Notes: generated from the letters alone by a model not told the origin. Counted from the first letter of the stretch, positions 5,351-39,181 are shown. The stretch is 64,000 nucleotides of DNA from an uncultured Planctomycetia bacterium (GCA_963780045.1 CAVZZZ010000005.1:743255-807254), one strand, 5' to 3'. Numbers and translations are program-made.

Positions 5351-5375
5351 TATCAATATATAAACGAGGCACACG

Positions 5376-7439: not shown

Positions 7440-7463
7440 ATCCGGCCCCAGACGCACATCCTG

Positions 7464-10150
<2,687 letters not shown>

Positions 10151-23030: not shown

Positions 23031-24647
23031 TCACGGCCCCGGCTGCTGCTGGCAGGCGGGCGGCATGTAGGGCGGACGGGTGGTGTCAACCGGACCGACC
23101 TGGCCCACGGGCCGGTCGCAAACGAGGGTCCGGGCAGGATAGCCCAATGCCCGGTAAAGCTGGAATTGGGCGCGGTTGTAGTTGCTGACCGCGGAGTAAT
23201 AGATGCCATAGGCTCGGTTCAACTGGATGAGCGCGGCGACGGCTTCCTGTGGCCGGTTGGCCATTTGCAGCACGGGTCCGCCAAGGGGTTGGCCGATGCC
23301 CTTGAGCGTGCCGTTGAAGGTGATTGCCGACTGGTTCAAACTAGTTGCCGCCCGTTGGACTTGCACGACGGCCGCTTCGAGAGCGGCGTGGGATTGCACG
23401 ACCTCTTCGGCAACCTGATCCTGGACGGTGGCGAGGTCGATCGCGGCCCTTTGTTCTTGGGCCTCGCGCTCGTGGACGAGTGCCCGGTTGCCCGCGCCCA
23501 AGTTTTGCAGCGTCCAGACCGCGCCCATCTCCACGTCGAAGCGGCCGTCGTACGGATGGGAACCATTGTCGGGTCCGCCGCCGTAAAGGCCGCCGTTGAA
23601 GAATCCGCCCGGCCCCTCGCCTTGAACGTAGACCGAAGGCAGGAAGGGGCGATAACTTTCCTGACGGACGCGCTCGGCGGCGGCGGCTACCTGCGCCCGG
23701 TCCGAGGCCAGCTCCGGGCGATTGCTCATACCGACGGGAATCAAGTCTCCGACCGCCGCCTGCGGCGAGACGAGCGTCACTTGAAGTTGCGGCGGCTCCA
23801 GCGGCACGACCACGGCGCTGGGGTTCAATCGCAGCAGGCGGGTCAGCCGGGCGCTGCTGACCCGCCAGTTCGCCCGTGCCACCGCCACCTGCTGTTGCAG
23901 GTCCGAGAGTTCCGCCAGCGACCGGTTCACTTCGATTCCCGGCACGAGACCGCCGGCAAGTCCTCGGGTCTTTTGGGCAAGTGTCTCGCCCTTGTCCGCG
24001 GCGTCTTGCAAGCCGGCCAACACGCCGCGGGCCTGCTGCACGTCGAAGTAGGCCAACGCCACATCCAGCAGGGCATCGTTTCGCGCCGTCTCCACGTCGT
24101 ATTGCCGGGCGGCCAAATCCTGGCAGTCGGCCAGTGGCCGGAAGATGGCGTCGGTGACAGCGAAATCGGCCGTCGCTCCGGCGCCGACCGCAAAAGAATA
24201 CTTGCGGTCGTAGATCATCAGGCCGTTGGACGCTTGATCGATACCGACATGCCGGTAGTAGTCTGTGCCTGCATTGAGGTTCGGCAGCCAAAGCACCTGC
24301 GAGCCGCGGAGCCGCGCGGCCGCTTCTTCCTCGCTCGCCTGGGCCGACGCGATCACCAGCGAACGCGCATTGGAAAGATACAAGGCCGTGGCAAGATTGA
24401 TCGGCAAGGCCGCGTCGGTCGGCGCGGGCTGTGCCGGCTGGATCGCCGGCGCTTGCGGCGCTTCATTGATCATCGGCGGTCCGACGATCGCGCCCTGCCC
24501 GACGTCAGCCGAGAGAGCCGCCTGCATTTGACCGGGTGGCAGAGGCACGCCGGTCGCTGGCGGTAGCTCTTGCGACTGTTGCGCAACGGCCACGGCCGTT
24601 GTCGTGAAAACGAGCATAAGCGACATGCCGATTGAGAATTGCGACAT
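23031..24647 (-). CDS. TolC-family outer-membrane efflux protein
   Basis: Signal peptide 'MSQFSIGMSLMLVFTTTAVAVAQQ'. Two OEP-type repeats with typical 'A....A..Q.DVETARNDALLDVALAYFDVQQAR' helices. Confidence 0.8.
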   Translation of the reverse strand: MSQFSIGMSLMLVFTTTAVAVAQQSQELPPATGVPLPPGQMQAALSADVGQGAIVGPPMINEAPQAPAIQPAQPAPTDAALPINLATALYLSNARSLVIASAQASEEEAAARLRGSQVLWLPNLNAGTDYYRHVGIDQASNGLMIYDRKYSFAVGAGATADFAVTDAIFRPLADCQDLAARQYDVETARNDALLDVALAYFDVQQARGVLAGLQDAADKGETLAQKTRGLAGGLVPGIEVNRSLAELSDLQQQVAVARANWRVSSARLTRLLRLNPSAVVVPLEPPQLQVTLVSPQAAVGDLIPVGMSNRPELASDRAQVAAAAERVRQESYRPFLPSVYVQGEGPGGFFNGGLYGGGPDNGSHPYDGRFDVEMGAVWTLQNLGAGNRALVHEREAQEQRAAIDLATVQDQVAEEVVQSHAALEAAVVQVQRAATSLNQSAITFNGTLKGIGQPLGGPVLQMANRPQEAVAALIQLNRAYGIYYSAVSNYNRAQFQLYRALGYPARTLVCDRPVGQVGPVDTTRPPYMPPACQQQPGP

Positions 24648-24871: not shown

Positions 24872-26405
24872 ATGCGATGGAACCTGGCAAGCAGGTTTTC
24901 CGCCACGATCCTGGGAGTCGTTGCGCTTGCGACCGTAAGCAGTCTAATGACCTTCTATGGGGCTTGGCGCGTCAATGTCCGTCTGGGGCAGGCGGACCGA
25001 GAGAATCTTCCGCGCGTTCGGGCCGAGGAGGCGGAAGTAGCCTTGGCCGATTGCAACAAATCGCTTGCAATGTACGTTATTGACCGGACCAGCTCCTCCT
25101 GGGCGAACGATTATCATGCCTCGCAGCGCCGCTTTCAGAGCTGGTTGGAAACCGTGCGAAACCTGCCCACTACTTCGGACGACGAACTGGCGAAATTGCT
25201 GCAGAAGGAACGCCATATCTTGAAGCAATTGGAAGAAAAATGGGCAGAAGTTGACACCCAACGCGACAGAGCAATATCGCTATGCAATAACGGGGAAGTG
25301 GACAAGGCAAAAGCGCTTCTGCGAGATATTGACGCCGGCGCTTCCGTCGAAATCCGCGGCTTATGCGACCAATTGATTTCGCTTCAGGAACAGTACAGCA
25401 AGGATATCATGTTGCGCCAGCCGGCGCATTCGCATCACGACGTGGGTGGTCGGCATATCCGGCGGCTTGACGCTGCTGTTGGGCGGTTTTCTTCTTTGGC
25501 TCTTCTTTTATCGCGTGCTGGTGCCGTTGCGCGGCATGGTTGCGGAAGTGCATATCTACCGCGGAAATCCCCAGGAACACGACAATGGCGCGGTGGAGGA
25601 CGAAATGCACATCATGGGCGGCTACCTGCGCAATTTGATGTCGGAGGTCACCGATTCGCGTTCGCGACTGGAGCGAGGCCGCGATCGTCTCCTCGTGGCG
25701 GAGAAGCTCGCCTCCGTGGGCAAACTGGCCGCCAGCGTCGCCCATGAAATCCGCAATCCGCTGACGGCGATGAAGATGTGGCTGTTTTCGATCCACGAAA
25801 TGGCCCGCGGGAATAAGGAGATGGTCCGCAGGCTGGGCATAGTTTCAGAGGAAATCGCGAGGCTGGAGCACATCGTCCGCGATTTTCTGGAGTTCTCGCG
25901 TCCGCCCGTGCCGCAGTGCAGTCCCCGGGACGTCGGCACGGTAATTGACGAGACGCTAAAATTGCTTGAGCCGCGCCTGCAGTGGGGCAAAGTGCGAGTT
26001 GTCCGCATGGCGCGTGGCGCACTGCCGCCGGTCATCGTCGATGCCAGCCAACTGAAGCAAGTCCTGCTCAATCTGCTGGGCAATGCCGTGGATGCCATGC
26101 CTTGCGGCGGCGAAATCCAGATTTCTTCTGCCAAGGAAACAAATGCCGACGGGCATCCTATGGTGGTTGTGCGAATCTCCGATACGGGGACCGGAGTGCC
26201 CCCGGACATACAGCCTCGTATCTTTGAGCCTTTTTTCAGCACGAAGGAAAGCGGCACGGGGCTGGGGCTGAGCATTGCGGCGCAGGTGATGAACCACCAT
26301 GGCGGCACCCTCGTGCTGGAATCTTCCACGGATAAAGGGACTACGTTTGCGGTCTGGTTGCCCATCGCTCCAAAGGACGCTCATGCCGAAGATTCTCATA
26401 GTTGA
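24872..26405 (+). pseudogene. NtrB-like sensor histidine kinase (one frame break near 25405-25415 as given)
   Basis: The N-terminal TM and helical sensor are in track ORF 24791..25747. TM2, HisKA ('LAASVAHEIRNPLTAM') and HATPase_c ('NLLGNAVDAM', 'DTGTGV', 'GTGLGLSIA') are in ORF 25446..26405. The join reads 'DIMLRQ|RRIRITTWVVGISGGL'. Confidence 0.85.
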
Positions 26406-27783
26406 CGACGAACAGAATGTGCAGCGGGCATTCGAGGAAATCCTTTCCGCGCGGGGGCACGAAGTCGCTTCCGTCCGCGGGGCGGAAGACGCGATGCGCC
26501 GTCTGAAGGATGCCGAATTCGATTTGGTAATTCTCGACATCTGCCTGCCGGGGATGAACGGCTTGGACGCGCTAGCTCAGATCAAGCAGATACGGCCGAT
26601 GCTGCCCGTAATCGTCATGACCGGCCAGAGCACAACCGACAACGCCATCGAAGCCACGAAACGAGGGGCATTCGACTACCAGCTAAAGCCCTTCGAGCCG
26701 GCAGAGATGCTGCAGACCATTGCCAAGGCCCTGGAGGCGTACCGGCTGATGAAGGGCCGCCTGGAGTTGGGTCCGGAGACGGCGAAGGCCTCGAACGACG
26801 CCATCGTCGGGCAAAGTCCGGCCATGCAACAGCTCTACAAGGCGATCGGCCGCGTGGCGGCTACGGACGCGACAGTGCTCATCCGTGGCGAGTCGGGTAC
26901 GGGCAAGGAGCTGGTGGCACGCGCGATTTATCAGCACAGCCGGCGAAACGAAAAGCCGCTAGTGGTCGTGAACTGCGCGGCAATCCCCGAAACCTTGCTG
27001 GAAAGCGAGCTTTTCGGCTACGAGCCGGGCGCCTTCACCGGCGCCACGACGCGGAGGATCGGAAAGTTCGAGCAGGCCCGCCGCGGCACGATCTTTTTGG
27101 ACGAGATCGGCGACATCCCTTTGAGCGTGCAGGCCAAAATCCTGCGAGTCCTGCAAGACGGCACGTTCGAACGCCTGGGGAGCAATGCCGTGCTTCAATC
27201 GGACGCGCGAGTCCTGTGCGCCACCAATCGCGATCTCGAGCAAGCCATGGCGGCGGGTCACTTTCGCGAAGACCTCTACCATCGCCTCAACGTGGTGACC
27301 TTGCTCTTGCCGCCCCTTCGCGAGCGGCGCGAGGATATTCCGCGACTCGTCGACTACTTTCTCAGCCGACATTCGAGGACTGCCGGCGTGGAAAAACCGC
27401 CGTTGGCCCCCGAAGCGCTGGACGCGCTGGTGAACTACACGTGGCCCGGCAACGTGCGCGAGTTGGAGCATCTCGTTCAACGCCTAATCATATTCACCGC
27501 CGGCTATACGATCCAGGCTGAGGACCTCTTGCCCGCCATGAGAAGCGACCCGCAATTGGCCGCATCTCCCACGGGAGAGGACCAGTGGCTGAATCTGATT
27601 CAAGCGCATCTTTCCGGCCATGAGGGAGGGCGGGCCGGCGAGGAATTGCTGGAGCAGGTCGAAAAGCTAATGATCGGCGAAGCCCTGCGGCGTTCGCAAG
27701 GCAATCAGACGCAGGCTGCCCGCCTGTTGGGAATGCCGCGTCCCACCCTGCACGCCAGGATGCAGAAATACGGGCTGCTTTGA
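26383..27783 (+). CDS. sigma54-dependent response regulator (NtrC family enhancer-binding protein)
   Basis: Receiver domain ('ILIVDDEQ', 'LVILDICLPGMNG'). AAA+ module with 'GESGTGKE' and an intact 'GAFTGA'. C-terminal HTH 'NQTQAARLLGMPRPTLHARMQKYGL'. It overlaps the HK stop by 23 nt. Confidence 0.9.
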   Translation: MPKILIVDDEQNVQRAFEEILSARGHEVASVRGAEDAMRRLKDAEFDLVILDICLPGMNGLDALAQIKQIRPMLPVIVMTGQSTTDNAIEATKRGAFDYQLKPFEPAEMLQTIAKALEAYRLMKGRLELGPETAKASNDAIVGQSPAMQQLYKAIGRVAATDATVLIRGESGTGKELVARAIYQHSRRNEKPLVVVNCAAIPETLLESELFGYEPGAFTGATTRRIGKFEQARRGTIFLDEIGDIPLSVQAKILRVLQDGTFERLGSNAVLQSDARVLCATNRDLEQAMAAGHFREDLYHRLNVVTLLLPPLRERREDIPRLVDYFLSRHSRTAGVEKPPLAPEALDALVNYTWPGNVRELEHLVQRLIIFTAGYTIQAEDLLPAMRSDPQLAASPTGEDQWLNLIQAHLSGHEGGRAGEELLEQVEKLMIGEALRRSQGNQTQAARLLGMPRPTLHARMQKYGLL

Positions 27784-27792
27784 CGCGAGGGC

Positions 27793-29244
27793 TTAGAGCG
27801 CTTGCCCTTGTGGAGCCGCGGCAAGCCGCGGAGGCGTGAGCGGTGCGTTCGAGCCGAGTTGCTTGAGATAATGCGCTGCCAGCGTATCACCGGGCGAGAG
27901 CTTGGCCACGACGGCAAACTCCGCTTCCGCATTCTGCGCGCACCCATCATCGAAAAGTGATACCCCAGCAGAAAGTGCTCCGCTGCGGAGCCTGGGTTGG
28001 CCGCCGCGGCCTTTTCCAGCGCCCGCAATTGGGACGTGTATTTTTTTACGTCTTCGTAATAGCGATAGAGATTCTTCCACTCAGCTATGGGTCCCATCGC
28101 CATCGCCGCATGCGCCTCGCTGGCGGCTGCCTGGTAGTTACCCAAAGCGAACAGCGCCAGCGAAATCAGTTCATGCACCCTGGGGTTTCCGGGCGCGTCC
28201 AGCTCCGCATGGGCCGCCTGCCGCAGCGCGTCTTGGTAATCGCCCTGCAGGAATGCGGCGCGGGCTGCGGAATAATAGCTGAGAGCGTCGTTGCCTCCCT
28301 CCTCTCCCGCGGCGGTCGTCGGCGCTGGGTGGGGAGGGACCGTTGCCTCTTCCGAGGCCGCGCCGGGAACGACCCCCGCGCTACCGTTCGAATAAGACGA
28401 ATAATAACTGTCCGGCGAGTAGGAATCGTCGTAGTAGCCGCCGTTTGGCGCATAATAGTTGCCGAGCGCAGGATTATAGCCGCCGTCCGCATAATAATTC
28501 ACGGTGGGATAGTAACTGCTGTCGACATAGTAATCGGCACTGGGATAGTAACCGTAGAGAGAATAGACGTAAGGATATCCCCAACTCCAGTCCCATCCGC
28601 CGTACCAAGGCGCGTAGCCGCCATACCCGGGCCAGCCTCCGCCCGATCCCCAACCGCCCCATCCTGATCCGCCCCATCCCCAGCCGCCCGCGTAGCCGCG
28701 GTTGAAGTAATTGCCCCAGCCATTGCGGCCATACCAAGCACCGCGGCCGCCGTACCAATTGCCGCGTGCCGCGCCATTGAATCCGCCATGAAACCCGTCC
28801 AGTCCCCGCGCGGCAAAGCCGCCGTTGTACCGACTGGCCGAGAAGGCGGCGCCGGTGCGCGCGAATTGCCCGCCGCCCCGACCAGAGGAGGCAGCGGCGA
28901 AGCCGCGTGCGCCGCCGTTTAACCCGGCGCCTCCAAAGCCGCCTGGGTGTCCGCCGGCAAAACCGGGATGCCCGCCGGAAAACGCCGCATGACCGCCAGC
29001 AAAGCCCGCATGACCACCGCCAAACCCAGTACCAGCCCCGCCAAACCCAGCGTGGCCGCCGCCGTGCGCACCGCCGAATCCTGCATGCCCGCCGCCGAAG
29101 CTGCTGGCGTGACCTCCGCCTCCATGTCCGCCCCCGCCTCCATGTCCGCCTCCGCCTCCGCGGGCGGCAATCGCCGGGCTTGCGGAGCGCTGCCAGAAGC
29201 GTGGCGAGAATCAATGCTGTTCGCAATTGTGATCTCGCTGACAT
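27793..29244 (-). pseudogene. secreted Gly/His/Tyr/Trp-rich low-complexity protein with conserved TPR-like C-terminal domain, paralogue 1 (two frame breaks as given)
   Basis: The signal peptide 'MSARSQLRTALILATLLAAL' lies in one frame. The next frame is open through 'ARGGGGGHGGGGGHGGGGHASSFGGGHAGFGG...WGWGGSGWGGWGSGGGWPGYGGYAPWYGGWDWSWGYPYVY...' into track ORF 27705..28502. The C-terminus continues in ORF 27793..28080 ('NAEAEFAVVAKLSPGDTLAAHYLKQL'), colinear with paralogue 2. The breaks are near 29170-29185 and 27944-27950. Confidence 0.75.
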
Positions 29245-29290
29245 GGTTGTTCTCTCGTTAATTCCTCATTCCCTTGATAGGTTTCGCAGG

Positions 29291-29809
29291 TCATCGCCGT
29301 TCGCCAGGTAGCGTTCGGGATGCGATCGGTACGGGTTTCGGCGGATTGGTTACGGTTCGCTCCGCGTTCACCCAAATGCCGTTTTCCCACCTCATCCAAC
29401 TATTGTCGGGCATCTGGTAGAACCATTTGCCGTTGGCATAACGATAGTGCGGATCACTGACGACCTCGCGGCCCGCGCTGGGCTGAGTCGCGATAAAGGT
29501 TGCGAGTTCATAGCGCGAGTTCACATCGAAACTCGGCGCATAGTAATACTCCTGAGCATCGTGCTGCGCCTGGCCAACGGCAAAAATGTTGATTCCGCTT
29601 GGAACAGCGGCTGCGTCCGGCCCTGCCGGCTCGAATTGACCCTGGCCGACACCGGCCGCGTAACTGTAGCCGCCTCCGAACAAGAGGCCGCCGCGAGTGT
29701 CTGCCTCATGCTCTCCCTGACCGACGCCTCGCGCCATGACATTGCATGTGAGAGACGCCAGAAACGCAGCTACAACCGCGACTAATCCGACCGATTTTGA
29801 GTACCACAT
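29291..29809 (-). CDS. small secreted protein of unknown function
   Basis: Signal/anchor 'MWYSKSVGLVAVVAAFLASLTCNVMA'. The C-terminus is aromatic-rich ('HYRYANGKWFYQMPDNSWMRWENGIWV'). It sits between the two Gly-rich paralogues with 46-nt and 70-nt gaps. Confidence 0.65.
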   Translation of the reverse strand: MWYSKSVGLVAVVAAFLASLTCNVMARGVGQGEHEADTRGGLLFGGGYSYAAGVGQGQFEPAGPDAAAVPSGINIFAVGQAQHDAQEYYYAPSFDVNSRYELATFIATQPSAGREVVSDPHYRYANGKWFYQMPDNSWMRWENGIWVNAERTVTNPPKPVPIASRTLPGERR

Positions 29810-29879
29810 AAGTCACCTCCGTTAAAAAGTTGCTTGCCACAGTTGCGAAGACCGGCCCATCGTTTTCTCAGTTCAGCGC

Positions 29880-31154
29880 TCAGCGCACCTGCCCCTTCGG
29901 AGTGGCGGCAGACTGCGGTTTTGCGGCCGTTTGCGGCGGCGCGGTGATTCGCGGCGGCGTGAGCGGCTGGTTCGCTTTCAACTCCGCGAGATAATGGGCC
30001 GCCAGCTTGTCCTTGGGCGTCAACTTAGCGGCTTCGGCGAATTGCGACTGAGCGTTGGGACGCGCGCCGATCATCAGGTCCTGATAGCCCAGCAGGAAGT
30101 GATCGGCGGCCGATTTGGGATTGTCCGACGAGGCCTTCTCCAGCGCCCTCAGTTGAGTCGTGTACTTGTTCACATCGTCGTAATAGCCGTAGAGGTCGTT
30201 CCAATCGGCAACCGATCCCATCGCCAATTCGGCGTGGGCCTCGCTGGCTGCGGGGCCATACTTGCCCGACGCGAACAGCGCCAGTGACAGCAACTCGTGG
30301 ACCTTGGCATTGCCCGGCGCGTCGATCTCGGCGTGCGCGCCCATCCTTAGGGCATTCGCGTAGTCGCCTTGCAGGAAGTAGTCGCGGGCCTGCTCATAAT
30401 ACTGCTCGCCTTCGCTGGCGGCCTGCTGTTGATCTTCCGGAATAGTCGCGGCCGTCTGCGGCGCGGTCTCCGCGACGTTGCCGCCGGTTTGAGCGTACGG
30501 GTAGTAATCGTAGCCATAATCGGTGTAAGGACTTTGGTAGTTGTAGGCGTAGTCGCTGTACGGATAGTAGTCATAGCCCGAGTACGCATACGGATAGCCC
30601 CAACCCCAATCCCACAAGCCGTACCAAGGCCAGAAACCGCCCAAGCCGTAACCGTATCCGCCGTACCCACCGTACCCCCCGTACCCGTTGTAGCCGTGCC
30701 GGCCGTAAAAGCCGTGTTTGTAGTAATTGCCATAGCGGCCGTAGTTGCCGAAGTTGCCGTGATTGAAGCCGGTGCCGGCGAAGGAGTTGAACTGGTGATT
30801 TCCACTGAAGCCGCCGGCGGCGCCAAAATTACCGCTGTGGACAGTGGGGGAGGCGAAGCTTCTGGCGCCGCTGTAGCCGGAAAAACCAGAGTAGCCTCGG
30901 CCGCTAAAACCGCCGAAGCTGCCTCCGCGCCACCCACCACCAAATCCGCCGCCGCCAAATCCTCCGCCATGAAACCCGCCACCGCCAAAACCGCCGCCGC
31001 CAAATCCACCGCCGTGGCCTCCGCCGCCTCCTCCGCCGTGCCCTCCGCCCCCTCCGCCGCCACCATGCGCCGACGAAGTCGCGGGAGCAATGCAAAGCGC
31101 CAGCAACAACGTGGCGACGATCGATGCTGTTCGGAAAAACGTCTTGACCAACAT
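29880..31154 (-). CDS. secreted Gly/His/Tyr/Trp-rich low-complexity protein with TPR-like C-terminal domain, paralogue 2
   Basis: ATG 31154 is preceded by SD 'GAAGGAGG'. Signal peptide 'MLVKTFFRTASIVATLLLALCIAPATSSA'. Next comes 'HGGGGGGGGHGGGGGGGHGGGFGGGGF...YGGYGGYGGYGYGLGGFWPWYGLWDWGWGYPYAYSGYDYYPY'. The C-terminal ~170 aa are conserved with paralogue 1 ('FLQGDY..AL', 'DAPGN.KVHEL.SLALFA', 'QLRALEKA', 'HFLLGY'). Confidence 0.85.
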   Translation of the reverse strand: MLVKTFFRTASIVATLLLALCIAPATSSAHGGGGGGGGHGGGGGGGHGGGFGGGGFGGGGFHGGGFGGGGFGGGWRGGSFGGFSGRGYSGFSGYSGARSFASPTVHSGNFGAAGGFSGNHQFNSFAGTGFNHGNFGNYGRYGNYYKHGFYGRHGYNGYGGYGGYGGYGYGLGGFWPWYGLWDWGWGYPYAYSGYDYYPYSDYAYNYQSPYTDYGYDYYPYAQTGGNVAETAPQTAATIPEDQQQAASEGEQYYEQARDYFLQGDYANALRMGAHAEIDAPGNAKVHELLSLALFASGKYGPAASEAHAELAMGSVADWNDLYGYYDDVNKYTTQLRALEKASSDNPKSAADHFLLGYQDLMIGARPNAQSQFAEAAKLTPKDKLAAHYLAELKANQPLTPPRITAPPQTAAKPQSAATPKGQVR

Positions 31155-31204
31155 AAAGTGCCTCCTTCGATGTTTCCAGTTCTTGCCAACCGCAATAAAA
31201 GGGG

Positions 31205-31220
31205 TGCAAACATCGTGCCT
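31205..31220 (-). promoter_or_regulatory. sigma54 promoter (-24 GG / -12 GC)
   Basis: The minus strand reads aGGCACGatgtTTGCA, against consensus TGGCACG-N4-TTGCA, with exact GG-N10-GC spacing. It lies ~50 nt upstream of ATG 31154. Confidence 0.7.
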
Positions 31221-31581
31221 CTGAACGCGAATCCAGCGACGGGGCAATCTTCAACGCAGGCCGCTGCCGCGGTCAATTTCCGCGTGCATGTCAGTCCATT
31301 TCGCGACTGCCGGCGTCGAATTCCTGACAGTGGCAGGCGTCCCAACAGGCCGGTTCCAAGGCTGGGCTCGCAAAACCGCCAGGATCAGGCACTTTGCGAT
31401 GTTCTGGCTCGATTTCCACGGGTCTGGCGCAGGATATGCTACCCCAATGTGAAAAAATGCCGGGAGGGTCATCGTTCGAGGTTGATCCGATCGATCGGCG
31501 AGCGGTAGGGACTGGGCTGAAGATTGAGCGCGAGGAACGCGAGGTAACGGACGTCTCAACATTGAAGGGGCTGATACGGTA

Positions 31582-32004
31582 ATGAAGACGATACTCCTGG
31601 CCGACGACGACAAGAACATCCGCCAGTACTGCCGCGACGCGTTGGCCGATGAAGGATACCGCGTCCTCCAGGCTGAGGACGGCGCCGAAGCCGTCTGGCA
31701 GTGCATGATCGAGTCGCCAGACCTAGTAGTCCTGGACGTTGCCATGCCGCGAACCAACGGACTGGAAGCTCTGGAACTGATCAAGCAGCTTTCCCCTCCG
31801 ACCCCGGTGGTCCTTTTCACGTCGCACGGGGATTGTCTGATCGACCGCCGCGCGCGGTTGGCTGCGGCGTGCGTCGAGAAGAGCGGCGACTTGACCGAAT
31901 TGAAGCGGACGGTCGTACAGGTGCTCAGGGAGCGGGCGCCAGAAAGCAGCGAGTCGCTCCGCATGGGAATGCCGCCGTTTCCGCCGAGACTTGAGCGCGC
32001 CTGA
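31582..32004 (+). CDS. single-domain CheY-like response regulator
   Basis: 'ILLADDDKNIR', phospho-acceptor context 'DLVVLDVAMPRTNG', 'PVVLFTSHG'. Confidence 0.85.
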   Translation: MKTILLADDDKNIRQYCRDALADEGYRVLQAEDGAEAVWQCMIESPDLVVLDVAMPRTNGLEALELIKQLSPPTPVVLFTSHGDCLIDRRARLAAACVEKSGDLTELKRTVVQVLRERAPESSESLRMGMPPFPPRLERA

Positions 32005-32056
32005 TGGCCGCGCAGCGATCTGGCTTGTTGTAATCACACGTCGAAAGAACATCGCC

Positions 32057-32584
32057 ATGCTTGTGTTAACGCGAAAAACCGGCCAACGGATTGTTTTGCC
32101 CAAGCTGGGTATCACGATCGACGTCGTAGATGTGAGCCGGACGCGAGTACGACTTGGAATTGCCGCGCCCTCCGAAGTTCCCATTCAACGCCGGGAGGCC
32201 CGGGACCGGCGCGCCGCCGCCAAACAACCGCCGTTGGCAGGACGCGACGGCGAGCGGGAACGTGGAACAGTGGCCGGAATGGGCGAGGCTTCTGGAGGTA
32301 CTGGCAAAGAACCTGGTGATCTCGATCTTTTGTTGACGCAACGAATTCTCCAACGCACACGAGGCCGCATTAGCGGACTTTCCGTGCAAACTCGTGACGG
32401 CCAAATCGTCGTCCGGGGCCATGCACGGTCCCGCTTCGCCCGACGATTGGCTCTCGCTGCAGTGCAAGAGGTCGTCAATATTTGTAATCGGCCCAAAAGC
32501 TCGGTGGGGTTCGAGATTGACGTCGGGCGGTATTATTGGCGATCCGCCGGTCATACGAGGGGGCTCACGAGATTTCCGGGGTAG
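32057..32584 (+). CDS. csrA: CsrA-family RNA-binding regulator with ~125-aa C-terminal extension (BON-like segment)
   Basis: 'MLVLTRKTGQRIVLPKLGITIDVVDVSRTRVRLGIAAPSEVPIQRRE' is colinear with the whole ~50-aa CsrA fold. The extension contains 'ISGLSVQTRDGQIVVRGHARSRFARRLALAAVQEV'. The track ORF starts at TTG 31991, but ATG 32057 matches the canonical CsrA start. Confidence 0.75.
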   Translation: MLVLTRKTGQRIVLPKLGITIDVVDVSRTRVRLGIAAPSEVPIQRREARDRRAAAKQPPLAGRDGERERGTVAGMGEASGGTGKEPGDLDLLLTQRILQRTRGRISGLSVQTRDGQIVVRGHARSRFARRLALAAVQEVVNICNRPKSSVGFEIDVGRYYWRSAGHTRGLTRFPG

Positions 32585-32757: not shown

Positions 32758-35700
32758 ATGAGCCTTACTGAATTCGCAATGCGGCGGCCGATCACGCTGG
32801 CCATGGTCGTCGTGGCCTTGATTGGCGGCGGCGTCCTGGCCTTCTTGGGGATGCGGGTCGACATCTTTCCGTCGATTAACGCGCCGCAAATCTACGTGGT
32901 GAACAACTACGCGGGCATGTCGCCCGAACAGATCGAGGGGATCGTCACCAACGTCTACGAGCAAAACTTCCAGTACGTCGACGGCATCAAGACGATTGAA
33001 TCGAAGAGCATTCAGAACTTCGTTCAGCTCAAGCTCACGTTCTATCCGGGCACCGACATGTCGGCGGCGATGTCGCAAGTCGTCAGCCTGACGAACCGTG
33101 CCCGCGGGCAAATGCCGCCCAGCGTGCTGCCGCCGTTCGTCATCCGCTTCGACGCCGCCAGCGTTCCGATCGGCTATTTGGTGATGTCGAGCAAGACCCA
33201 ACCGCTTGGCACGCTCGCCGACCTGGGCCTCTTCCAGATCCGGCCCAAGTTGATCGAGCGGGTGCAAGGCACGGTCGCCTTCTCGCCCTACGGCAGCAAC
33301 ACGCGGGCCATCGTCGTCTCGGTCAATCCCGACCGCCTCCGCGCCCACAATCTTACGCCGGAAGACCTGGTCTCCGCCCTGGAGACGGGCAACGTCGTCA
33401 CGCCGTCGGGAAACCTCTACACCCAGACCGAGATGCCGCTGGTGCCCACCAACGCCATGGCCAGCTTGCAGGAGATGGGCAAGATTCCCATCCAGCCCGG
33501 CAAGCCCGTCTACCTCGGCGACGTGGCGACGATCGAGGACACGACCGACATCAACTACGGCTGCGCGCTGGTCAACGGCCGCAAGTCGATCTTCATCCCC
33601 GTGGTCAAGAAGGACACGGCGTCGACGCTCACCGTCGTCAACCAGATCCACGCCACCATGCCCGAGTTCAAGTCGCTGCTCCCCAAGGACGTCGACATCA
33701 GTTACGCATTCGACGAATCGCCCACGGTACGGGCGGCCATCAAGAGCGTGGTCACCGAGGGCGCGATCGGCGCGGGGCTGACCGGGCTGATGATCCTCTT
33801 GTTCCTGCACGACTTGCGGAGCGTGGTCGTTGTGCTGATCAGCATCCCGTTGTCGCTGACCTGCTCGCTGGTCGGCCTGTGGCTGACGGGCAACACGATC
33901 AACATCATGACGCTGGGCGGACTGGCGCTGGCCATCGGCATCCTTGTGGACGAGGCCACCGTTACCATCGAGAACACGCACGCGCAGATGCGGCTCACCA
34001 ATTCCATCGCCCGCGCTGCGGCCGAGGCGAACGCGACTACGAACACCGCTCGGCTATTGGCAATGCTTTGCATCCTTTCGGTGTTCATTCCCGCGTTCAT
34101 CCTTAATGAGCCGGTCCGCTCGCTCTTCATGCCGCTGACGCTCGCGGTGGGCTTTGCGATGATCGCCTCGTATTTGCTCTCCAGCACGCTGGTGCCGGTG
34201 CTGACCGTCTGGCTGGTGAAGCACGCCGGGCACGACGAGCACAAGGAATCACTCTTCGACCGCTTCCTGGCAGTGTTTGTCAAGGTGGTGGCAGCGACGG
34301 TCCGCCACCGCTGGGCCGTCGTCGGGACGTACCTCGCCGCCTGCGGCGTGCTGATCGTGCTGGTCGGCAGCCGCGTGAGCATGGAGCTGTTTCCCGAGGT
34401 CGATTCGGGCCAGTTCGTGCTGCGATTTCGCGCCCTTCCGGGGACCGAATACGAGCTAACCCGGCGGTGCGCGGTGCAGATCCTCGACGTTATCAACGAG
34501 GAAAGTGGCGGCAACGTGGAAACATCCATTGGCTACACGGGCATGGGCTCGACGAACACGGCCACGAACAACATCCTGCTCTTCATGCGGGCCAGCGACG
34601 ACGGCGTGCTTCGCGTGCGACTCAAAGAAGGCAGCGGTGTGGCCGTCGCTGAGCTTCGCGAGCGATTGCGCAAGGTCCTGCCGCAAAGAATTGAGCCTTG
34701 GCTGCAAGGCTATCTGGCGAAGCACGGCTGGTCCGCGGAAGACGCCGAAGCACGGTCAAAAGAGATGTCGTTCGGCTTCGAGCCGGGCGACATCGTGAGC
34801 ACGGTGATGAGCTTCGGCTCGCCCAATCCCGTCGAGGTCCTGGTGATCGGGCCGAAGCGCGAGGAGGTCAAGGCGCACGCCTTGAAAATACTTGCCGAAA
34901 TGAAGAAGATTCCCGAGCTCCGCGACGTGCAGCTCTACCAGCAATTGGAATATCCCACGGTCCGCGTCGATATTGACCGGCAGTTGGCCGGACTGAGCGA
35001 CGTGAACGTCAAGGACATTACCGAAGCTACGCTGGTGGGCAATTCTTCCAGCCGCTACGTCGTGCGAAATTACTGGCGCGATCCGAAAACGGGCGTCGAC
35101 TACCAGGTCCAGATTCAGGTTCCCACCCAGCGCATGGATCGGCCGCAAGAGGTGGAGAACCTGCCCATCCGAAACGTCAACCGCGACGGCGGCCTGTTGC
35201 TTCGCGACGTGGCCACGGTGCGGCCCAGCACGACTCCGGGCGAAATCGACCGCAGCGCCATGCACCGGTACCTGAGCGTGACGGCGAACGTCGAAGGCAA
35301 CGACCTGGGCAGCGCCGCCCGCGATATCCGGCAGGCCATCGCCGCGGCGGGCGAGCCGCCCCGCGGCGTGCAAGTGAGCGTTCGGGGCCAGGTTGCGCCG
35401 ATGACCGAAATGTTCACTTCCCTGACGATCGGCCTCGCGCTTTCGGTCGTCGTGATCCAGGTGCTCTTGACGGCCTACTTTCAGTCGTTCCGCGTGGCGC
35501 TGGTTTCGATCGGCGGCGTACCGGGTGTCGTTCTCGGCGTGGCCACGATGCTTGTGCTGACTGGAACCAGTCTGAATATCGAATCATTCATGGGCTCGAT
35601 CATGTGCATCGGCGTTTCCGTGTCGAACTCGGTGCTGCTCTCCACCTTCATGGACGACTACTGGTCCGCCGGGGCGATGGTCCAAGAGGCGGCCATCGAC

Positions 35701-36033
35701 GGCGCCCGCGACCGCCTGCGGCCGATCCTCATGACGGCCAGCGCGATGGTCCTGGGCATGGTGCCCATGGCCTTGGCGCTGGAGGAAGGCAGCGGCATGA
35801 CCGCGCCCTTGGGCCGCGCGGTGATCGGCGGCCTGCTGGTTTCGACCTTCGCCACGCTGTTGATCGTGCCTGCCATGTTCGCTATCGTGATGGGAGACTC
35901 CAGGAAGCTCCCGCCTTCTGTCTACCCCGACGATCCTAACAGCCGGCACTACGACCCGCAGTGGCACGAGCGCAAAGCCATCCACGGCGGCCCGGAGCCG
36001 CACGAAGGCCCATACGGACAGGGAATTGAATGA
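32758..36033 (+). CDS. RND-family efflux transporter, inner-membrane permease (AcrB/HAE-like)
   Basis: 1091 aa with 12-TM RND organisation. The TM4 motif 'LALAIGILVDEATVTIEN' resembles the HAE-type DD/DE motif rather than the CzcA 'DGA' type. Confidence 0.9.
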   Translation: MSLTEFAMRRPITLAMVVVALIGGGVLAFLGMRVDIFPSINAPQIYVVNNYAGMSPEQIEGIVTNVYEQNFQYVDGIKTIESKSIQNFVQLKLTFYPGTDMSAAMSQVVSLTNRARGQMPPSVLPPFVIRFDAASVPIGYLVMSSKTQPLGTLADLGLFQIRPKLIERVQGTVAFSPYGSNTRAIVVSVNPDRLRAHNLTPEDLVSALETGNVVTPSGNLYTQTEMPLVPTNAMASLQEMGKIPIQPGKPVYLGDVATIEDTTDINYGCALVNGRKSIFIPVVKKDTASTLTVVNQIHATMPEFKSLLPKDVDISYAFDESPTVRAAIKSVVTEGAIGAGLTGLMILLFLHDLRSVVVVLISIPLSLTCSLVGLWLTGNTINIMTLGGLALAIGILVDEATVTIENTHAQMRLTNSIARAAAEANATTNTARLLAMLCILSVFIPAFILNEPVRSLFMPLTLAVGFAMIASYLLSSTLVPVLTVWLVKHAGHDEHKESLFDRFLAVFVKVVAATVRHRWAVVGTYLAACGVLIVLVGSRVSMELFPEVDSGQFVLRFRALPGTEYELTRRCAVQILDVINEESGGNVETSIGYTGMGSTNTATNNILLFMRASDDGVLRVRLKEGSGVAVAELRERLRKVLPQRIEPWLQGYLAKHGWSAEDAEARSKEMSFGFEPGDIVSTVMSFGSPNPVEVLVIGPKREEVKAHALKILAEMKKIPELRDVQLYQQLEYPTVRVDIDRQLAGLSDVNVKDITEATLVGNSSSRYVVRNYWRDPKTGVDYQVQIQVPTQRMDRPQEVENLPIRNVNRDGGLLLRDVATVRPSTTPGEIDRSAMHRYLSVTANVEGNDLGSAARDIRQAIAAAGEPPRGVQVSVRGQVAPMTEMFTSLTIGLALSVVVIQVLLTAYFQSFRVALVSIGGVPGVVLGVATMLVLTGTSLNIESFMGSIMCIGVSVSNSVLLSTFMDDYWSAGAMVQEAAIDGARDRLRPILMTASAMVLGMVPMALALEEGSGMTAPLGRAVIGGLLVSTFATLLIVPAMFAIVMGDSRKLPPSVYPDDPNSRHYDPQWHERKAIHGGPEPHEGPYGQGIE

Positions 36034-37328
36034 TGCGTAGATTTCCGTTTGCCACTGTGGTTCTGACGGCGACCCTTATGGTCGCCGGCTGCCGCCACGA
36101 AACGGCCGAGAAGAAAACCGAGCCGTCCGAGCCCACGGTCCAGGTAGTGAGGCCGGAGCGACGGACCATCGACCTTGCCATCGAACAGCCCGGCTTCGTC
36201 AACGCCTTCAACCAGACCGCGCTGTTTGCCAAAGTAACCGGCTACATAGAAGATTATTCCGTCGACATCGGCGACGAGGTCAAAAGCGGCCAAGTGCTGG
36301 CCACGATTTTCGTCCCCGAGCTGAAGGAGACGCACGATCAGACGGTGGAGCAGGTCAAGCTGGACAAGCAACTCGTCGTCGTTGCCGAGAAGAGCGTGCA
36401 AAACGCGAAGGCCGAGGTCGCCGAGGCCGAGGCCAAGGTCGGCAGCTACAAGGCGGAGATTGATCGCTGGAACACCGAAGTTAAACGCCTGACGGAGATG
36501 GTGCAGGAAAAAGTCGTCGACCAGGAAATCCTCACGGAGACGATAAAGACCGTTGATCAGAGCGTCGCCGCGAAGAACGCCGCCGAGAAAGCCGTCAACG
36601 CGCGAGAGGCCGACCTGTCCATGGCCGAAGCCAACGTGAAAAAGGCCGTCATCCAGGTAGGCGTCGCCGAGGCCGAGGAGCGCAAGGCCACGGCCATGCT
36701 AAACTATACGCAAATCGTCGCGCCCTACGACGGCGTCGTTACTGTCCGCAACGCGAACAAGGGCGACTACGTGCAGGCGGCCACCGGCGACAAATCGAAC
36801 GCCAACCCCTCGGCGATCTTCGTCGTCGAGCGGACCGACATCCTCCGTGTTTTCTGCTACGTCGATGAGAGCCACGCGGCCTATGTGCAGCCGGGCACGA
36901 AGGCGTCCATTCGGGCCAAGGGGCTCAGCAGCGTCGAAATCTCCGCGACTGTGACACGCACGTCCTGGTCGATCAAATCGGCAACCCGCAGTTTGTGGAC
37001 CGAAGTCGATCTGACAAAGAAGCAGTACGACGGGCTTCGTCCCGGCAGATACTGCACGGTGACGATCTTCATCGATCGGCCCAACGTTTTCGCCCTGCCG
37101 CGGCAAGCCGTGAGGGAAGAGGGCAACACGATGTACTGTTACCTCGTTCACGACGGCAAGGCAGTCAAAACGCCGGTCGAGACCGGGCTTAGCGACGGCA
37201 ACTGGGTGGAGGTCAACATGCTGAAGATCGACGACCCGTGGGTGAAGGTCAGCGGCGGCGAAAAGGTGATAGTCGGCGACACGAGCGACTTGAGCGACGG
37301 GGAGGCGGTGCAAGTGGCAAAGCAATAG
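36030..37328 (+). CDS. RND efflux periplasmic adaptor (membrane-fusion protein, HlyD family)
   Basis: An ATGA overlap joins it to the RND gene. It has a lipoprotein-like N-terminus 'LTATLMVAGC', a long coiled-coil hairpin, and beta-barrel motifs ('IVAPYDGVVTVRNANKGDYV'). Confidence 0.85.
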   Translation: MMRRFPFATVVLTATLMVAGCRHETAEKKTEPSEPTVQVVRPERRTIDLAIEQPGFVNAFNQTALFAKVTGYIEDYSVDIGDEVKSGQVLATIFVPELKETHDQTVEQVKLDKQLVVVAEKSVQNAKAEVAEAEAKVGSYKAEIDRWNTEVKRLTEMVQEKVVDQEILTETIKTVDQSVAAKNAAEKAVNAREADLSMAEANVKKAVIQVGVAEAEERKATAMLNYTQIVAPYDGVVTVRNANKGDYVQAATGDKSNANPSAIFVVERTDILRVFCYVDESHAAYVQPGTKASIRAKGLSSVEISATVTRTSWSIKSATRSLWTEVDLTKKQYDGLRPGRYCTVTIFIDRPNVFALPRQAVREEGNTMYCYLVHDGKAVKTPVETGLSDGNWVEVNMLKIDDPWVKVSGGEKVIVGDTSDLSDGEAVQVAKQ

Positions 37329-37330
37329 CG

Positions 37331-37346
37331 TGTCGGCTAGCCGACA
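37331..37346. terminator. perfect 16-bp palindrome TGTCGGCTAGCCGACA between convergent genes
   Basis: Read directly from the sequence. It starts 3 nt after the adaptor stop and lies 44 nt from the PIN gene stop. There is no T-tract, so terminator function is an inference. Confidence 0.35.
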
Positions 37347-37389
37347 TGCCGCCAGTTGCATGCAACCCTAATCATTGGCATCCGCGCGC

Positions 37390-37943
37390 CTATTGCCCAG
37401 TCTTTGCAAGCTGGTCGCTCCACCACTTGTGGCATGGCATTGACGCGTTCGGCGCAAACTTCGCGAGGAACTGGATGTCTTGCAATGTCTGGCGCAATAC
37501 GGAATCGCTCGGCTGGACCTTGTCCGACCAAGTCTTAACAAGCTCCGGACAGGAAATGACGGTTAGACCCGCCGCCTTTCCAACGCGGATCGCTTTGCGG
37601 TCGTCCGTAGCTACGATCCATCCGCGACTCTCCGCGATGGCCAGACACATCGCCTCGCCGTCCGACCGGAATACGGCGGCATACTGAGTAAAGCGGGCTA
37701 ATTCTTGACTTCCTTCCGGCTGGCAGGCGCAAAGCGCCCGGCGGGAAAAAGCGGAGTGAGGTCTGCCGCGACTGAAATAGTCTGCCCCGGCTGCTGCGGA
37801 TCGTGCTGGCGAACAAATCGGACCTCGCTTTGCACCGATAGAGGCACGTGCCAATCGAACGCCGCCGCGCGAAGAATCGCCTCCGCGTGTCCCGACGCAA
37901 ACAGGTCGATCAAGCAGCAAGCATCCATCACAGCGGACGGCAT
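37390..37943 (-). pseudogene. PIN-domain (DUF4411/VapC-like) putative toxin, one frame break as given
   Basis: The N-terminus 'MDACCLIDLFASG...SVQSEV' is in track ORF 37698..37943. The C-terminus 'SDGEAMCLAIAESRGWIVATDDRKAIRVGKAAGLTVIS' is in ORF 37390..38031. Acidic PIN residues are present. The break is around 37700-37745. Confidence 0.6.
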
Positions 37944-37960
37944 GACGAGTCCTCGTCAAG

Positions 37961-39181
37961 TCAGGAGGTAGCGCCCAAGAGCGACCGCGGAAGCTCCAAT
38001 TCGAGCCGGCGCTCCTCGCCGCTGGGCTCAATCTCTTGGCACGTCCTTGCCTTGGCAGCGATTTCTCGTGCCGAAACGATGTCCGATCGCAAATAGTCCG
38101 CTAGATCGCTTTCCCCAATCTCGCCTTTTTCGTAGGCATTGACGGCAAGGAACACGTAGCGCTCAGGAAAGGCGTAATCGTCGGCCCGTTGCGGCTGCAA
38201 TCCGAGCAACTCGGCCGCATGACGCGGGGCGAACTTCGATTCCCTGATCAAGTTCCAGCTTCCTTTGGGAATCAGGGCAAGCTGCTCCAGCCGGAGCGAC
38301 ATAGCTTCTACCGAAACGAAAAAGAAATGGCTCAGGCGGCAAAGGTCGGCGACTTGGAAGTCCTTCGTCGCGGACACGATTTCGTGAAATCGCTGCCTTA
38401 CGGCGTTGGCCGGCATGAGAAAGCCAAGGGCAAAGGCTTCCGCAAATCGCTCGTTGGCCGGCTTGCGCCCCGGCATATTCAAATAATCGATGCCGGGTTT
38501 ATAGCGATCCACGATCAGGTGGCCGTACTCGTGCAGCATGGAAAGCCGCCGCCGCGCGGCGGGATGCTTGCGATTCACCATCACACAACAACCTGCATCG
38601 TCGGCGTAGGCATACATGCCGGCGATCGGCGATGGCAGCGGCCAATAGAAGATCCGCAGCCCCACGTCCCATTCCAGGAGGCGGCGAAGCTGCTCGACGG
38701 GTTGTTCGGCCAACCCCAACCGCCGCCGCTCTTGCCCGGCCAGCGACTCGGCCAACTCGGCCACATCGACGGGCGTTTCCAGGGCCACCTGCGGCGGATA
38801 ATTGTAGCGCAGCGGGGCGTTCATCATTCGCTCCAATTCGCAGTAGTCAGACGCGAGGGATTGAAGATCGCCTATCGCCGCAATAAGCCCGCGCTGCTCG
38901 TCCGCCTTGATTTTTTCTGCCGCCGCGCGCAGATGCGGCTGGAAGTCAATGACCGGCTCGCCGGGGCGGACAAGTTCCGAGACCTTTCGCCCGAAGTAGG
39001 CAGCCAGTTTCACGATTTCTTCTGGCTTTGCCGGACGCTCGCCCTTTTCGATGCCGATGTACGTTGGCCGGCTACAGTTCAAGAACTCGGACACGTCCTC
39101 TTGCGTGACGCCCCTCGCTTTGCGAGCCTCCGCAATACGTTGACCGAGAATTCGCGGATCGATCGATTCAAGCGAAAACAT
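37961..39181 (-). CDS. XRE-family HTH fused to ImmA/IrrE (COG2856) zinc metallopeptidase
   Basis: HTH 'LGQRIAEARKARGVTQEDVSEFLNCSRPTYIGIEKGER'. HEXXH motif in 'RLSMLHEYGHLIVD'. It ends 17 nt before the PIN gene start. Confidence 0.85.
   Translation of the reverse strand: MFSLESIDPRILGQRIAEARKARGVTQEDVSEFLNCSRPTYIGIEKGERPAKPEEIVKLAAYFGRKVSELVRPGEPVIDFQPHLRAAAEKIKADEQRGLIAAIGDLQSLASDYCELERMMNAPLRYNYPPQVALETPVDVAELAESLAGQERRRLGLAEQPVEQLRRLLEWDVGLRIFYWPLPSPIAGMYAYADDAGCCVMVNRKHPAARRRLSMLHEYGHLIVDRYKPGIDYLNMPGRKPANERFAEAFALGFLMPANAVRQRFHEIVSATKDFQVADLCRLSHFFFVSVEAMSLRLEQLALIPKGSWNLIRESKFAPRHAAELLGLQPQRADDYAFPERYVFLAVNAYEKGEIGESDLADYLRSDIVSAREIAAKARTCQEIEPSGEERRLELELPRSLLGATS

Follow-up and report, generated by a model that had tools for sequence, protein, structure and literature searches.

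Within a 64-kb stretch of the genome of an uncultured soil Planctomycetia bacterium (GCA_963780045.1 CAVZZZ010000005.1:743255-807254; hereafter the window, with positions counted from its first letter), a minus-strand operon encodes two paralogous proteins, P1 and P2, in which a disordered region rich in glycine and aromatic residues precedes a tetratricopeptide repeat (TPR) domain. The operon converges on the genes for a sensor histidine kinase and an NtrC-family sigma54 enhancer-binding response regulator (the activator). On balance, we lean toward reading this locus as an inducible envelope module, in which sigma54-dependent activation would supply exported disordered and TPR proteins as a self-associating envelope material. 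Comparative evidence gives good support to the predicted operator and promoter, to their linkage with the kinase and activator, and to the prediction of exported disordered and TPR products that are under selection; a role as envelope or periplasmic material, read from composition only, is plausible.

Predicted sigma54 control of the operon

The predicted promoter, AGGCACGATGTTTGCA, departs at one position from TGGCACG-N4-TTGCW, has its GG (31218-31219) and GC (31206-31207) elements 10 nt apart and lies 51 nt upstream of the P2 start codon, which would put the transcription start near 31194. Taken alone the match is not significant, with 2 sites of at most one mismatch in the 64 kb against 0.79 expected. 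The near-consensus promoter that a previous sequence-only reading of the stretch had called is conserved in orthologous loci: it is identical in the related loci L001 and L004 and has variants in L003, L005, L006, L007, L008 and L082, those of L008, L082 and L003 standing at -65 to -81 from the ATG. The strong Shine-Dalgarno sequence called ahead of P2 is likewise present.

When the regions upstream of the operon in L001, L004 and the window are aligned, the bulk of the intergenic DNA is seen to have diverged. What has been kept is the promoter block, GAGAGGCACGATGTTTGCA, together with a second block, C[A/G]CTGTCAGGAATTCGACG-N5-6-GTCG-GAA-TGGAC, whose 17-mer CTGTCAGGAATTCGACG is identical in all three. 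This second block is made of two 14-bp GTC-N8-GAC palindromes with the consensus GTCSGRAWWTSGAC, placed 21 nt apart from centre to centre. The motif GTCNNNAWWTNGAC has two matches in the 64-kb window, which are these two adjacent sites, against 0.25 expected. A GTC-N8-GAC motif, usually paired, is found upstream of the sigma54-type promoter of the first family gene in eight related loci, at a distance of 87-145 nt from the promoter in L001, L004, L005, L007, L008 and L082 and of 218-239 nt in L003 and L006. The sequence-only reading had placed the activator site at an inverted TGTCAG...CTGACA pair. The pair exists, as a 6-bp repeat that brackets the two palindromes; its right arm is not kept in L001 or L004, and we rejected the pair as activator site, the GTC-N8-GAC palindromes between its arms being conserved instead.

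The kinase and the activator have the order and the domains that had been ascribed to them, with the kinase gene upstream. By Pfam, the kinase consists of an N-terminal transmembrane segment, a periplasmic sensor of the four-helix-bundle type (4HB_MCP_1), a second transmembrane segment, HisKA and HATPase_c. The activator carries Response_reg, Sigma54_activat (3.7e-72), AAA_lid_14 and HTH_8 domains and the GAFTGA motif, the features of the NtrC family. Its NCBIfam scores all stay below the curated cut-offs (NtrC 506 against 559, AtoC 451 against 714, PrsR 416 against 503, ZraR 393 against 760), and assignment as an NtrC, ZraR, AtoC or PrsR equivalog was rejected.

Five species-level loci (L001, L004, L005, L006 and L008) have a tandem family pair followed by the convergent orthologous activator gene (74-90% identical) and the kinase gene. 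With promoter, sites, tandem paralogues and convergent regulators conserved in related species, the regulatory part of the sequence-only reading, a sigma54-driven operon linked to the adjacent kinase and activator, is well supported by comparison. Across the family loci, 93 signal-peptide starts were recovered, among them several alternative Met codons belonging to a single gene; 13 of the 93 have a promoter with at most two mismatches in the 260 nt upstream, against 1.5% of random windows. Sigma54 itself is implied by the two GAFTGA-containing activators in the window. Sigma54 regulons have been described for Planctomycetia, and an in-silico survey found CsrA, CheY-like and TPR orthologous groups to be enriched behind predicted sigma54 promoters in this class (PMC12316311). 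The defined kinase/activator pair, the putative GTC-N8-GAC operator and the predicted promoter offer a regulatory handle for seeking the inducing condition with a reporter.

Similar sites stand ahead of other genes in the relatives. A Cytidylate_kin2 gene that is absent from the window (L001 11893-12743; L003 14684-15620) is preceded by a GTC-N8-GAC site and a sigma54 promoter of its own and probably belongs to the same regulon. On the minus strand of L008 (16819-16000), paired sites and the promoter GGGCACTCCATTTGCA precede the gene of another exported protein. Paired sites also lie upstream of the kinase gene in L005 (15283-15252, minus strand), with no promoter recognised there; they suggest autoregulation of the kinase. 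In the window, an 11-nt inverted repeat with 91% complementarity (31168-31178 and 31205-31215) would pair the -12 half of the promoter with the sequence just upstream of the Shine-Dalgarno sequence; it is found partly in L004 and not in L001. A second NtrC-family activator gene with GAFTGA, 39% identical to the first, lies at 62238-63644 (plus strand) beside a minus-strand open reading frame (ORF), 61165-61815, with a weak receiver-domain match at 61546-61785.

P1 and P2 join a disordered Gly/aromatic-rich region to a TPR domain

P2 and the repaired P1 (see below) follow a common plan: a Sec signal peptide, Gly runs, a G/Y/F/N/S zone, a Y/W/P/D zone (for example …GGFWPWYGLWDWGWGYPYAYSGYDYYPY…), an A/P/Q/T/E linker, a TPR domain of ~150 aa and a Pro-rich tail. 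The predicted mature N-terminus is H or R followed by the Gly runs, and the low-complexity region spans ~215-270 aa. P2 is divided into the signal peptide (1-29), Gly runs with H and F (31-90, 72% Gly), the G/Y/F/N/S zone (91-170), the Y/W/P/D zone (171-225) and the TPR repeats (~250-395). P1 has six GH[AP][GA]F units in a Gly/His/Ala/Phe zone, then a Gly/Trp/Tyr zone, the linker, four TPR repeats and the Pro-rich tail. Over residues 30-245 of P2, composition is 36% G, 14% Y, 8% F, 4% H and 3% W (Y+F+W 25%), with 14 charged and 5 aliphatic residues. The previous description of a region made almost only of G, H, F, Y, W, S, N and R was overstated, as these amount to ~77% of this interval, with His at merely 4%; both peptide strings that it quoted are present, and both belong to P2.

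The signal peptide junction of P2, MLVKTFFRTASIVATLLLALCIAPATSSA|HGG, shows by pattern a basic N-terminus, a hydrophobic segment and A-x-A. The transition from signal peptide to [H/R]GGGG recurs in dozens of homologous loci, which bears out the signal peptides proposed for both paralogues; the one of P1 lies in a separate frame in the window. Both proteins are probably exported by Sec and cleaved at A-x-A|[H/R]GGGG. In most signal peptides of the close clade a Cys is conserved 8-10 residues before [H/R]GGGG (…ALC…; in P2 at ~31092-31094). The usual lipobox has G, A or S at -1 and follows the pattern [LVI][ASTVI][GAS]C. Assignment as a canonical lipoprotein was rejected because A-L precedes the Cys, by a rule from which planctomycetes may vary.

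In comparison with L001 and L004, the low-complexity region of P2 has pN/pS of 0.21-0.22 with pS above 0.5, and the TPR domain has 0.15-0.20; GC3 of the Gly-rich frame is 0.73, typical of genes in the window. Judged by these values and by the recurring signal peptide junction, the Gly-rich frame is the translated frame and is under purifying selection.

The C-terminal domain, previously called TPR-like, is a true four-repeat TPR. A profile built from 36 sequences aligns with a consensus TPR from the PDB over four repeats and 136 residues (E = 1e-12), and in the AlphaFold model of P2 residues 250-400 form nine helices with pLDDT above 94, with residues 25-229 below 50. Searched with Foldseek, the P2 model retrieves consensus TPRs, Hsp90-peptide-binding TPRs, MamA and OGT, among them TPRs that bind peptides or self-assemble. 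Sequence and fold searches of the PDB returned generic TPR domains only, with no specific relative among them. P2 had no Pfam match at E ≤0.01, and the reconstructed P1 had three TPR-type matches below the cut-offs. In NCBIfam, P2 matched MamA only (E = 0.008) and its C-terminal domain MamA and PrsT only (E ~0.001). At the level of composition, P2 has the features of phase-separating G/aromatic disordered proteins: predicted disorder, aromatic stickers spaced by Gly, Ser and Asn, and few charges.

A large family in Planctomycetota and Verrucomicrobiota

Homologues were sought with the C-terminal domain alone, and many were found. A word-indexed search returned 67 proteins, which pipelines had named 'TPR repeat protein', 'hypothetical' or 'TadD'. 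Searching 1.84 billion cluster representatives (50% identity) with a hidden Markov model gave 1,349 at E ≤1e-30 and 3,090 at E ≤1e-10. With one genome taken per species, 279 stretches of DNA encode a relative, and the best 77 of these 279 were used for the locus comparisons. The 77 loci come nearly all from Planctomycetota (Planctomycetia, Pirellulales, Thermoguttaceae, Isosphaeraceae, Gemmataceae) and some from Verrucomicrobiota (Haloferula, Akkermansiaceae). N-terminal regions range from 150 to more than 700 aa across the family, some with NRPGGG-type repeats. A high share of glycine (median 24.5%) and of aromatic residues (median 19%) is conserved, unlike that of His, for which the median is 1.5% and values span 0-14%.

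As far as the curated collections go, the family is uncharacterised, with no curated family to which it belongs beyond weak TPR matches, and our literature searches for a bacterial counterpart of P1 and P2 returned nothing relevant. About 1,350 cluster representatives share the TPR domain, preceded by a Gly/aromatic-rich region wherever the N-terminus was read, and for none of them is a function known. The family is almost confined to Planctomycetota and Verrucomicrobiota, phyla with unusual and poorly understood envelopes. It is large, shared by two related phyla and odd in composition, and through the putative operator and promoter it has become approachable by experiment.

Gene layout and frame breaks

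The three-gene minus-strand operon of the sequence-only reading is seen in the sequence, with P2, a small exported protein and P1 running in this order from 31154 to 27793 (Table 1). Its end does lie close to the convergent activator gene; the spacing between the P1 stop (27793) and the activator gene end (27783) is 9 nt, not 10. The product of the middle gene, which has no match in Pfam or NCBIfam, combines a signal peptide and a Gly-rich N-terminal portion with the conserved motif DPHYRYANGxWFYQMPDNSW. Six homologues were found in 5.8 billion proteins, one of them (L080) in an unrelated redox-gene context, and none in any related locus. By this distribution the small protein is lineage-specific and outside the conserved module. 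Its AlphaFold model (pLDDT 43) was unusable.

Table 1. Features of the P1/P2 locus and its regulators (window positions).
Feature	Position	Strand	Basis
Sensor histidine kinase	24872..26405	+	Pfam; frame broken near 25411-25430
NtrC-family sigma54 enhancer-binding response regulator (activator)	26383..27783	+	Pfam; GAFTGA at 27028
Paralogue 1 (P1), ~484 aa once repaired	27793..29244	-	Three-frame translation; frame errors at 29185 and 27937
Small exported protein (predicted), 172 aa	29291..29809	-	Translation
Paralogue 2 (P2), 424 aa, intact	29880..31154	-	Translation, composition, AlphaFold
Shine-Dalgarno sequence GGAGG, 6 nt ahead of the P2 ATG (31154)	31161..31165	-	Sequence
Predicted sigma54 promoter AGGCACGATGTTTGCA	31205..31220	-	Pattern match; identical in L001 and L004
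Putative upstream activator site 2, GTCGCGAAATGGAC (GTC-N8-GAC palindrome), centre near -106	31294..31307	.	Motif, footprinting
Putative upstream activator site 1, GTCAGGAATTCGAC, centre near -127	31315..31328	.	Motif, footprinting
62-codon ORF, last 22 codons a remnant of a 150-aa exported protein gene	31394..31582	+	tblastn
Candidate divergent sigma54 promoter TGGCGCAGGATATGCT	31425..31440	+	3 mismatches to consensus
Stand-alone receiver-domain response regulator	31582..32004	+	Pfam Response_reg 8e-22
CsrA-like RNA-binding domain with weak BON-like C-terminal region	32054..32584	+	Pfam CsrA 1.4e-15; BON 1.7e-4 (below cut-off)

The sequence-only reading had overlooked two frameshifts in P1 and one in the kinase. 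By three-frame translation, P1 is not a single open frame in the window: one frame holds its signal peptide (MSARSQLRTALILATLLAAL), a second, after a shift near 29185, the Gly-rich body together with the TPR domain, and a third, after a shift near 27937, the last ~50 codons (…AQNAEAEFAVVAKLSPGD…PQGQAL*). An exact-sequence look-up of the frameshifted P1 ORF found no record. The kinase frame is split between the sensor and the second transmembrane segment.

Essentially the same strain is represented by a second assembly (ENA ERZ25039465 contig_65560, loci L079 and L081), which was reached via the small protein and is 99.6% identical to the window over a 6.5-kb core and 99.2% over 20.5 kb. At 29185 it has two extra bases (TG), giving …CTC TGC GCA AGC… (L-C-A-S), and at 27937 one extra C, giving …CGC CAG AAT GCG… (R-Q-N-A; both in L079). 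With these bases the P1 frame is repaired in just the way expected from the orthologues in L001 and L004; the P1 signal peptide of L001 is intact (MSARSLLRAASMVVTLIAALCASPAIAAHGGGG). The second assembly has breaks of its own where the window is intact, such as a 2-nt deletion in P2 at 30066-30067. Of the 25 alignment columns that differ within the 6.5-kb core, about 19 are inside or beside a GCGC, and over 20 kb 22 of 62 indel columns fall within 6 nt of GCGC, against a background of 9.4%. The same GCGCG-rich stretch, just after 'GAR' codons, is broken in three independent assemblies (P1 in the window, P2 in L004 and the first gene in L008). The relatives assembled under MFD or contig_ names have scattered frame breaks in every case, for example an RND gene in three pieces in L001; these metagenome-assembled genomes (MAGs) are Nanopore-only assemblies polished with Medaka (PMC12313526).

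Given that the second assembly restores the frames and that the differences cluster at GCGC, the P1 frameshifts are most likely Nanopore sequencing artefacts and not gene decay. Relative to L004, the kinase break is one G missing in a GCGC(G)CC context, and the L001 orthologue is a single intact ORF of 535 aa; this frameshift, too, is probably an artefact. The GCGC-linked errors are, we infer, most likely tied to methylation. In practical terms, motif-linked Nanopore errors at GCGC make false pseudogenes in long-read MAGs, of which this locus is an example.

Between window positions 19300-39762 and L081, the assembly differences are mainly C/T changes and 1-2-nt indels at GCGC (29185, 27937, 30066-30067, 31855-31856, 28863, 28197), which suggests that motif-linked base-calling errors produce false frameshifts in both assemblies. 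The three 1-kb bins at 35000-37999 hold 27, 52 and 12 differences per kb, against 1-9 in most bins (12 in the 39-kb bin). They cover the C-terminus of the RND pump, the adaptor gene and the stretch beyond, and the excess may be real strain variation or recombination in efflux genes. A P-type ATPase gene (E1-E2_ATPase, 43666-47807, plus strand) is apparently split into the overlapping frames 43666-45618, 45420-46175, 46012-47031 and 46908-47807, which may be further frame errors.

Proposed mechanism and alternative explanations

In the scheme that we propose, the membrane kinase would sense a periplasmic signal through its four-helix-bundle domain and, judging by domain architecture, phosphorylate the activator. 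The activator would bind the two GTC-N8-GAC palindromes near -106 and -127, as phylogenetic footprinting indicates, and drive open complex formation at the minus-strand sigma54 promoter and probably also at the weaker divergent one on the plus strand. The minus-strand transcript would carry P2, the lineage-specific small protein and P1, and the plus-strand transcript the receiver and the CsrA-BON protein. P1 and P2 would leave the cytoplasm via Sec, with cleavage probably at A-x-A|[H/R]GGGG. Outside, aromatic residues would act as stickers and Gly runs as spacers in the self-association of the disordered region, and the TPR domain would serve docking or oligomerisation. The few His residues might render the assembly pH- or metal-sensitive in this clade.

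We favour a self-associating material because conserved Gly spacers and aromatic stickers, with almost no charge, are joined to a fold that binds peptides or self-assembles; disordered G/H/Y proteins and YG domains form coacervates and hydrogels (PMC6884462, PMC9795577). If the disordered region does self-assemble, the locus would be a rare bacterial case in which phase separation or gel formation outside the cytoplasm is regulated. A bolder version, which we put forward tentatively and regard as rather unlikely, is that the family comprises exported 'YG/FG-type' disordered proteins whose inducible gel or condensate, in the planctomycete periplasm or at the surface, would be selectively permeable, with the TPR domain for docking or cross-linking. 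If true, this would be an extracytoplasmic bacterial counterpart of the FG-nucleoporin, PEX13-YG and squid-beak phases, switched by a dedicated sigma54 two-component system.

Several observations weigh against an inducible, sigma54-controlled envelope module. About 80 of the 93 signal-peptide starts are without a recognisable sigma54 promoter, and the strict pattern is found upstream in 3 of the 77 loci. Because most family starts are without such a promoter, predicted sigma54 control marks one clade and does not extend to the whole family. Within the 64-kb window there is neither rpoN nor an RpoN box, and the candidate divergent promoter, with 3 mismatches to the consensus, is weaker than its copies in relatives. 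The kinase break is common to both assemblies of the strain, and the kinase may be truly broken. Finally, in the AlphaFold model of full-length P2 the disordered region is not docked in the TPR groove and is modelled as disordered.

The sequence-only reading had also offered a metal-buffering material, and on the model of ZraP the mature N-terminal HGGGG tracts might bind Cu, Zn or Ni in the periplasm while the kinase senses metal. P2 does start with HGGGGGGGGHGGGGGGGHGGG and P1 has 11 His in its G/A/F repeats, ZraS and ZraR are among the named NCBIfam matches of kinase and activator, genes for an RND pump, its adaptor and an outer-membrane factor flank the locus here and in relatives, and ZraP, which binds zinc in the periplasm, is expressed from a sigma54 promoter that depends on ZraR (PMC4987338). 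However, His makes up only 4% of the low-complexity region here and still less at the family median, the first mature residue in many orthologues is Arg, and there is no HGGGW unit. The ZraR, ZraS, NtrC and AtoC scores are far under the equivalog cut-offs, with ZraR not even the top match. The pump reaches 479 bits with multidrug models against 348 with CusA/CzcA, both below cut-off; a heavy-metal RND context was rejected on the better multidrug fit. We therefore consider metal buffering or metal stress an unlikely function, and a dedicated metal buffer less likely than self-associating envelope material. Less probable still is a membrane-tethered TPR receptor, with the conserved signal-peptide Cys lipidated and the Gly-rich region serving as a long flexible tether. 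The Cys is kept in most close-clade members (for example LALCIAP, AALCASP and VALCASL) and the TPR domain weakly resembles the PrsT model of a TPR lipoprotein (E = 0.001), but Leu stands before the Cys, outside the usual lipobox, many distant members that retain A-x-A|HGGGG have no Cys, and a simple tether would not need strongly conserved aromatic zones.

A decaying locus, with P1 and the kinase as pseudogenes and the promoter as a relic, would account for the three frameshifts in the window, of which the one in the kinase is in both assemblies. We judge it very improbable, given that the other assembly restores both P1 frames while having different breaks of its own, that the differences concentrate at GCGC with one GCGCG-rich stretch broken in three assemblies, that scattered breaks also mark the Nanopore-only MAGs of the relatives, and that the coding sequence is under purifying selection. 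The most remote of the alternatives is that the TPR domain is a carrier from which glycine-rich antimicrobial or adhesive peptides are released. Gly/His-rich and Gly/Tyr-rich peptides are known from plants and arthropods, and the likeness in composition is what speaks for this idea; yet processing sites are absent, the conserved neighbourhood has neither immunity nor export genes and offers no secretion route other than Sec, and the TPR domain is the most conserved part of the proteins. A self-associating envelope material or scaffold stays our preferred reading of P1 and P2.

Relation to known systems

The sequence-only reading knew of no characterised bacterial counterpart. For the proteins this holds; for the architecture it does not, ZraPSR of Enterobacteria being analogous. 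There, ZraS/ZraR and periplasmic ZraP are expressed from divergent sigma54 promoters, so that, as appears to be the case here, a periplasm-sensing kinase and an NtrC-family activator lie beside their target and one set of activator sites serves divergent sigma54 promoters (PMC4987338). The regulators in the window differ in being convergent to the target, the divergent partner being the receiver and CsrA-BON operon, and in scoring far below the ZraR and ZraS cut-offs. P1 and P2 have no LTXXQ-type Pfam match and stand outside the CpxP/Spy/ZraP family; with no homology in the Pfam and NCBIfam scans, a place among the ZraP/CpxP/Spy chaperones was rejected. ZraP shares with them that it is a small exported product, and it has Gly/His-rich ends. 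By analogy, ZraPSR is the closest characterised regulatory system, with an effector family here that is uncharacterised and unrelated to ZraP.

Other likenesses are of composition. Squid beak histidine-rich proteins (HBPs), in which His deprotonation sets off phase separation and Tyr stacking stabilises it (PMC6884462), and G/Y/F sticker-spacer proteins are extracellular, disordered and rich in Gly, His and aromatic residues, with short modular repeats to which the GH[AP][GA]F units of P1 may be compared. No homology is involved: His is much scarcer in P1 and P2, a folded TPR domain is attached, and the host is bacterial. The Tyr/Gly-rich domain of PEX13 forms a hydrogel-like selective phase into which the TPR receptor PEX5, with its aromatic motifs, partitions (PMC9795577). 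In P2, GYGGYGGYGGYGYG, then W/Y motifs and a TPR domain occur in one chain; this likeness is compositional and conceptual only, as PEX13 sits in a membrane and contains an SH3 domain, and it implies no transport role.

The PEP-CTERM/PrsK-PrsR-PrsT system also combines a sigma54 activator and kinase with a TPR protein and exported low-complexity proteins. PrsR is the fourth-best NCBIfam match of the activator and PrsT a weak match of the TPR domain, both below cut-offs. The Pro-rich, hydrophilic C-terminus of P2, PLTPPRITAPPQ...GQVR, has no sorting signal and no transmembrane helix, unlike a PEP-CTERM protein, and that assignment was rejected. No exosortase is in the gene lists of L001 and L082-L085, the remaining neighbourhood not having been screened. 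With the prion octarepeat (PHGGGWGQ) copper sites, P1 and P2 share Gly runs with occasional His and Trp. Their His and Trp are in separate zones, and a prion-type Cu(II) octarepeat was rejected as no HGGGW unit occurs in either protein.

A candidate divergent promoter and the plus-strand genes

In relatives, divergent sigma54 promoters lie across the palindromes from the operon promoter, with the sequences TGGCACCGGAAATGC[A/T] (L001 and L004), TGGCACGGGGAATGCT (L005) and TGGCACGGCGACTGCT (L008); the L001 copy reads TGGCACCGGAAATGCA. The candidate in the window, TGGCGCAGGATATGCT, lies 97 nt from site 1 and faces the genes of the response regulator and the CsrA-like protein. In L001 the divergent promoter precedes an intact gene for a 150-aa exported protein (7026-7478), followed by the receiver and CsrA-BON genes, and its counterparts in L005 and L008 lie ahead of a gene for an exported protein that resembles a PRC barrel by sequence. 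A Pfam PRC gene is at the corresponding place in L082, where a divergent promoter was not searched for.

In the window, the ORF at 31394-31582 matches the 150-aa protein of L001 over 22 aa only (82% identity), and the sequence at this remnant is ~360 bp shorter than in L001. With the gene reduced to 22 codons, the divergent promoter would read into the receiver and CsrA-BON genes. Orthologues of the receiver are found in L001, L003, L004, L005, L006 and L008, and those of the CsrA-like protein in L001, L003, L004, L005 and L008, L006 having matched the receiver query only. The pair thus also lies upstream in four of the five tandem-pair loci and in L003.

Flanking genes

The locus is flanked by an outer-membrane factor gene (23031-24647, minus strand) and by RND pump and adaptor genes (32758-37328, plus strand). 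L001 and L082 likewise have RND pump genes as well as outer-membrane factor genes, and L085 has RND pump genes. Other genes of the window code for a large WD40 protein and for three Ser/Thr protein kinases, of which one has TPR repeats (2726-5350, 5364-7439, 39475-43203 and 57234-58787), a gene content that is common in Planctomycetota.

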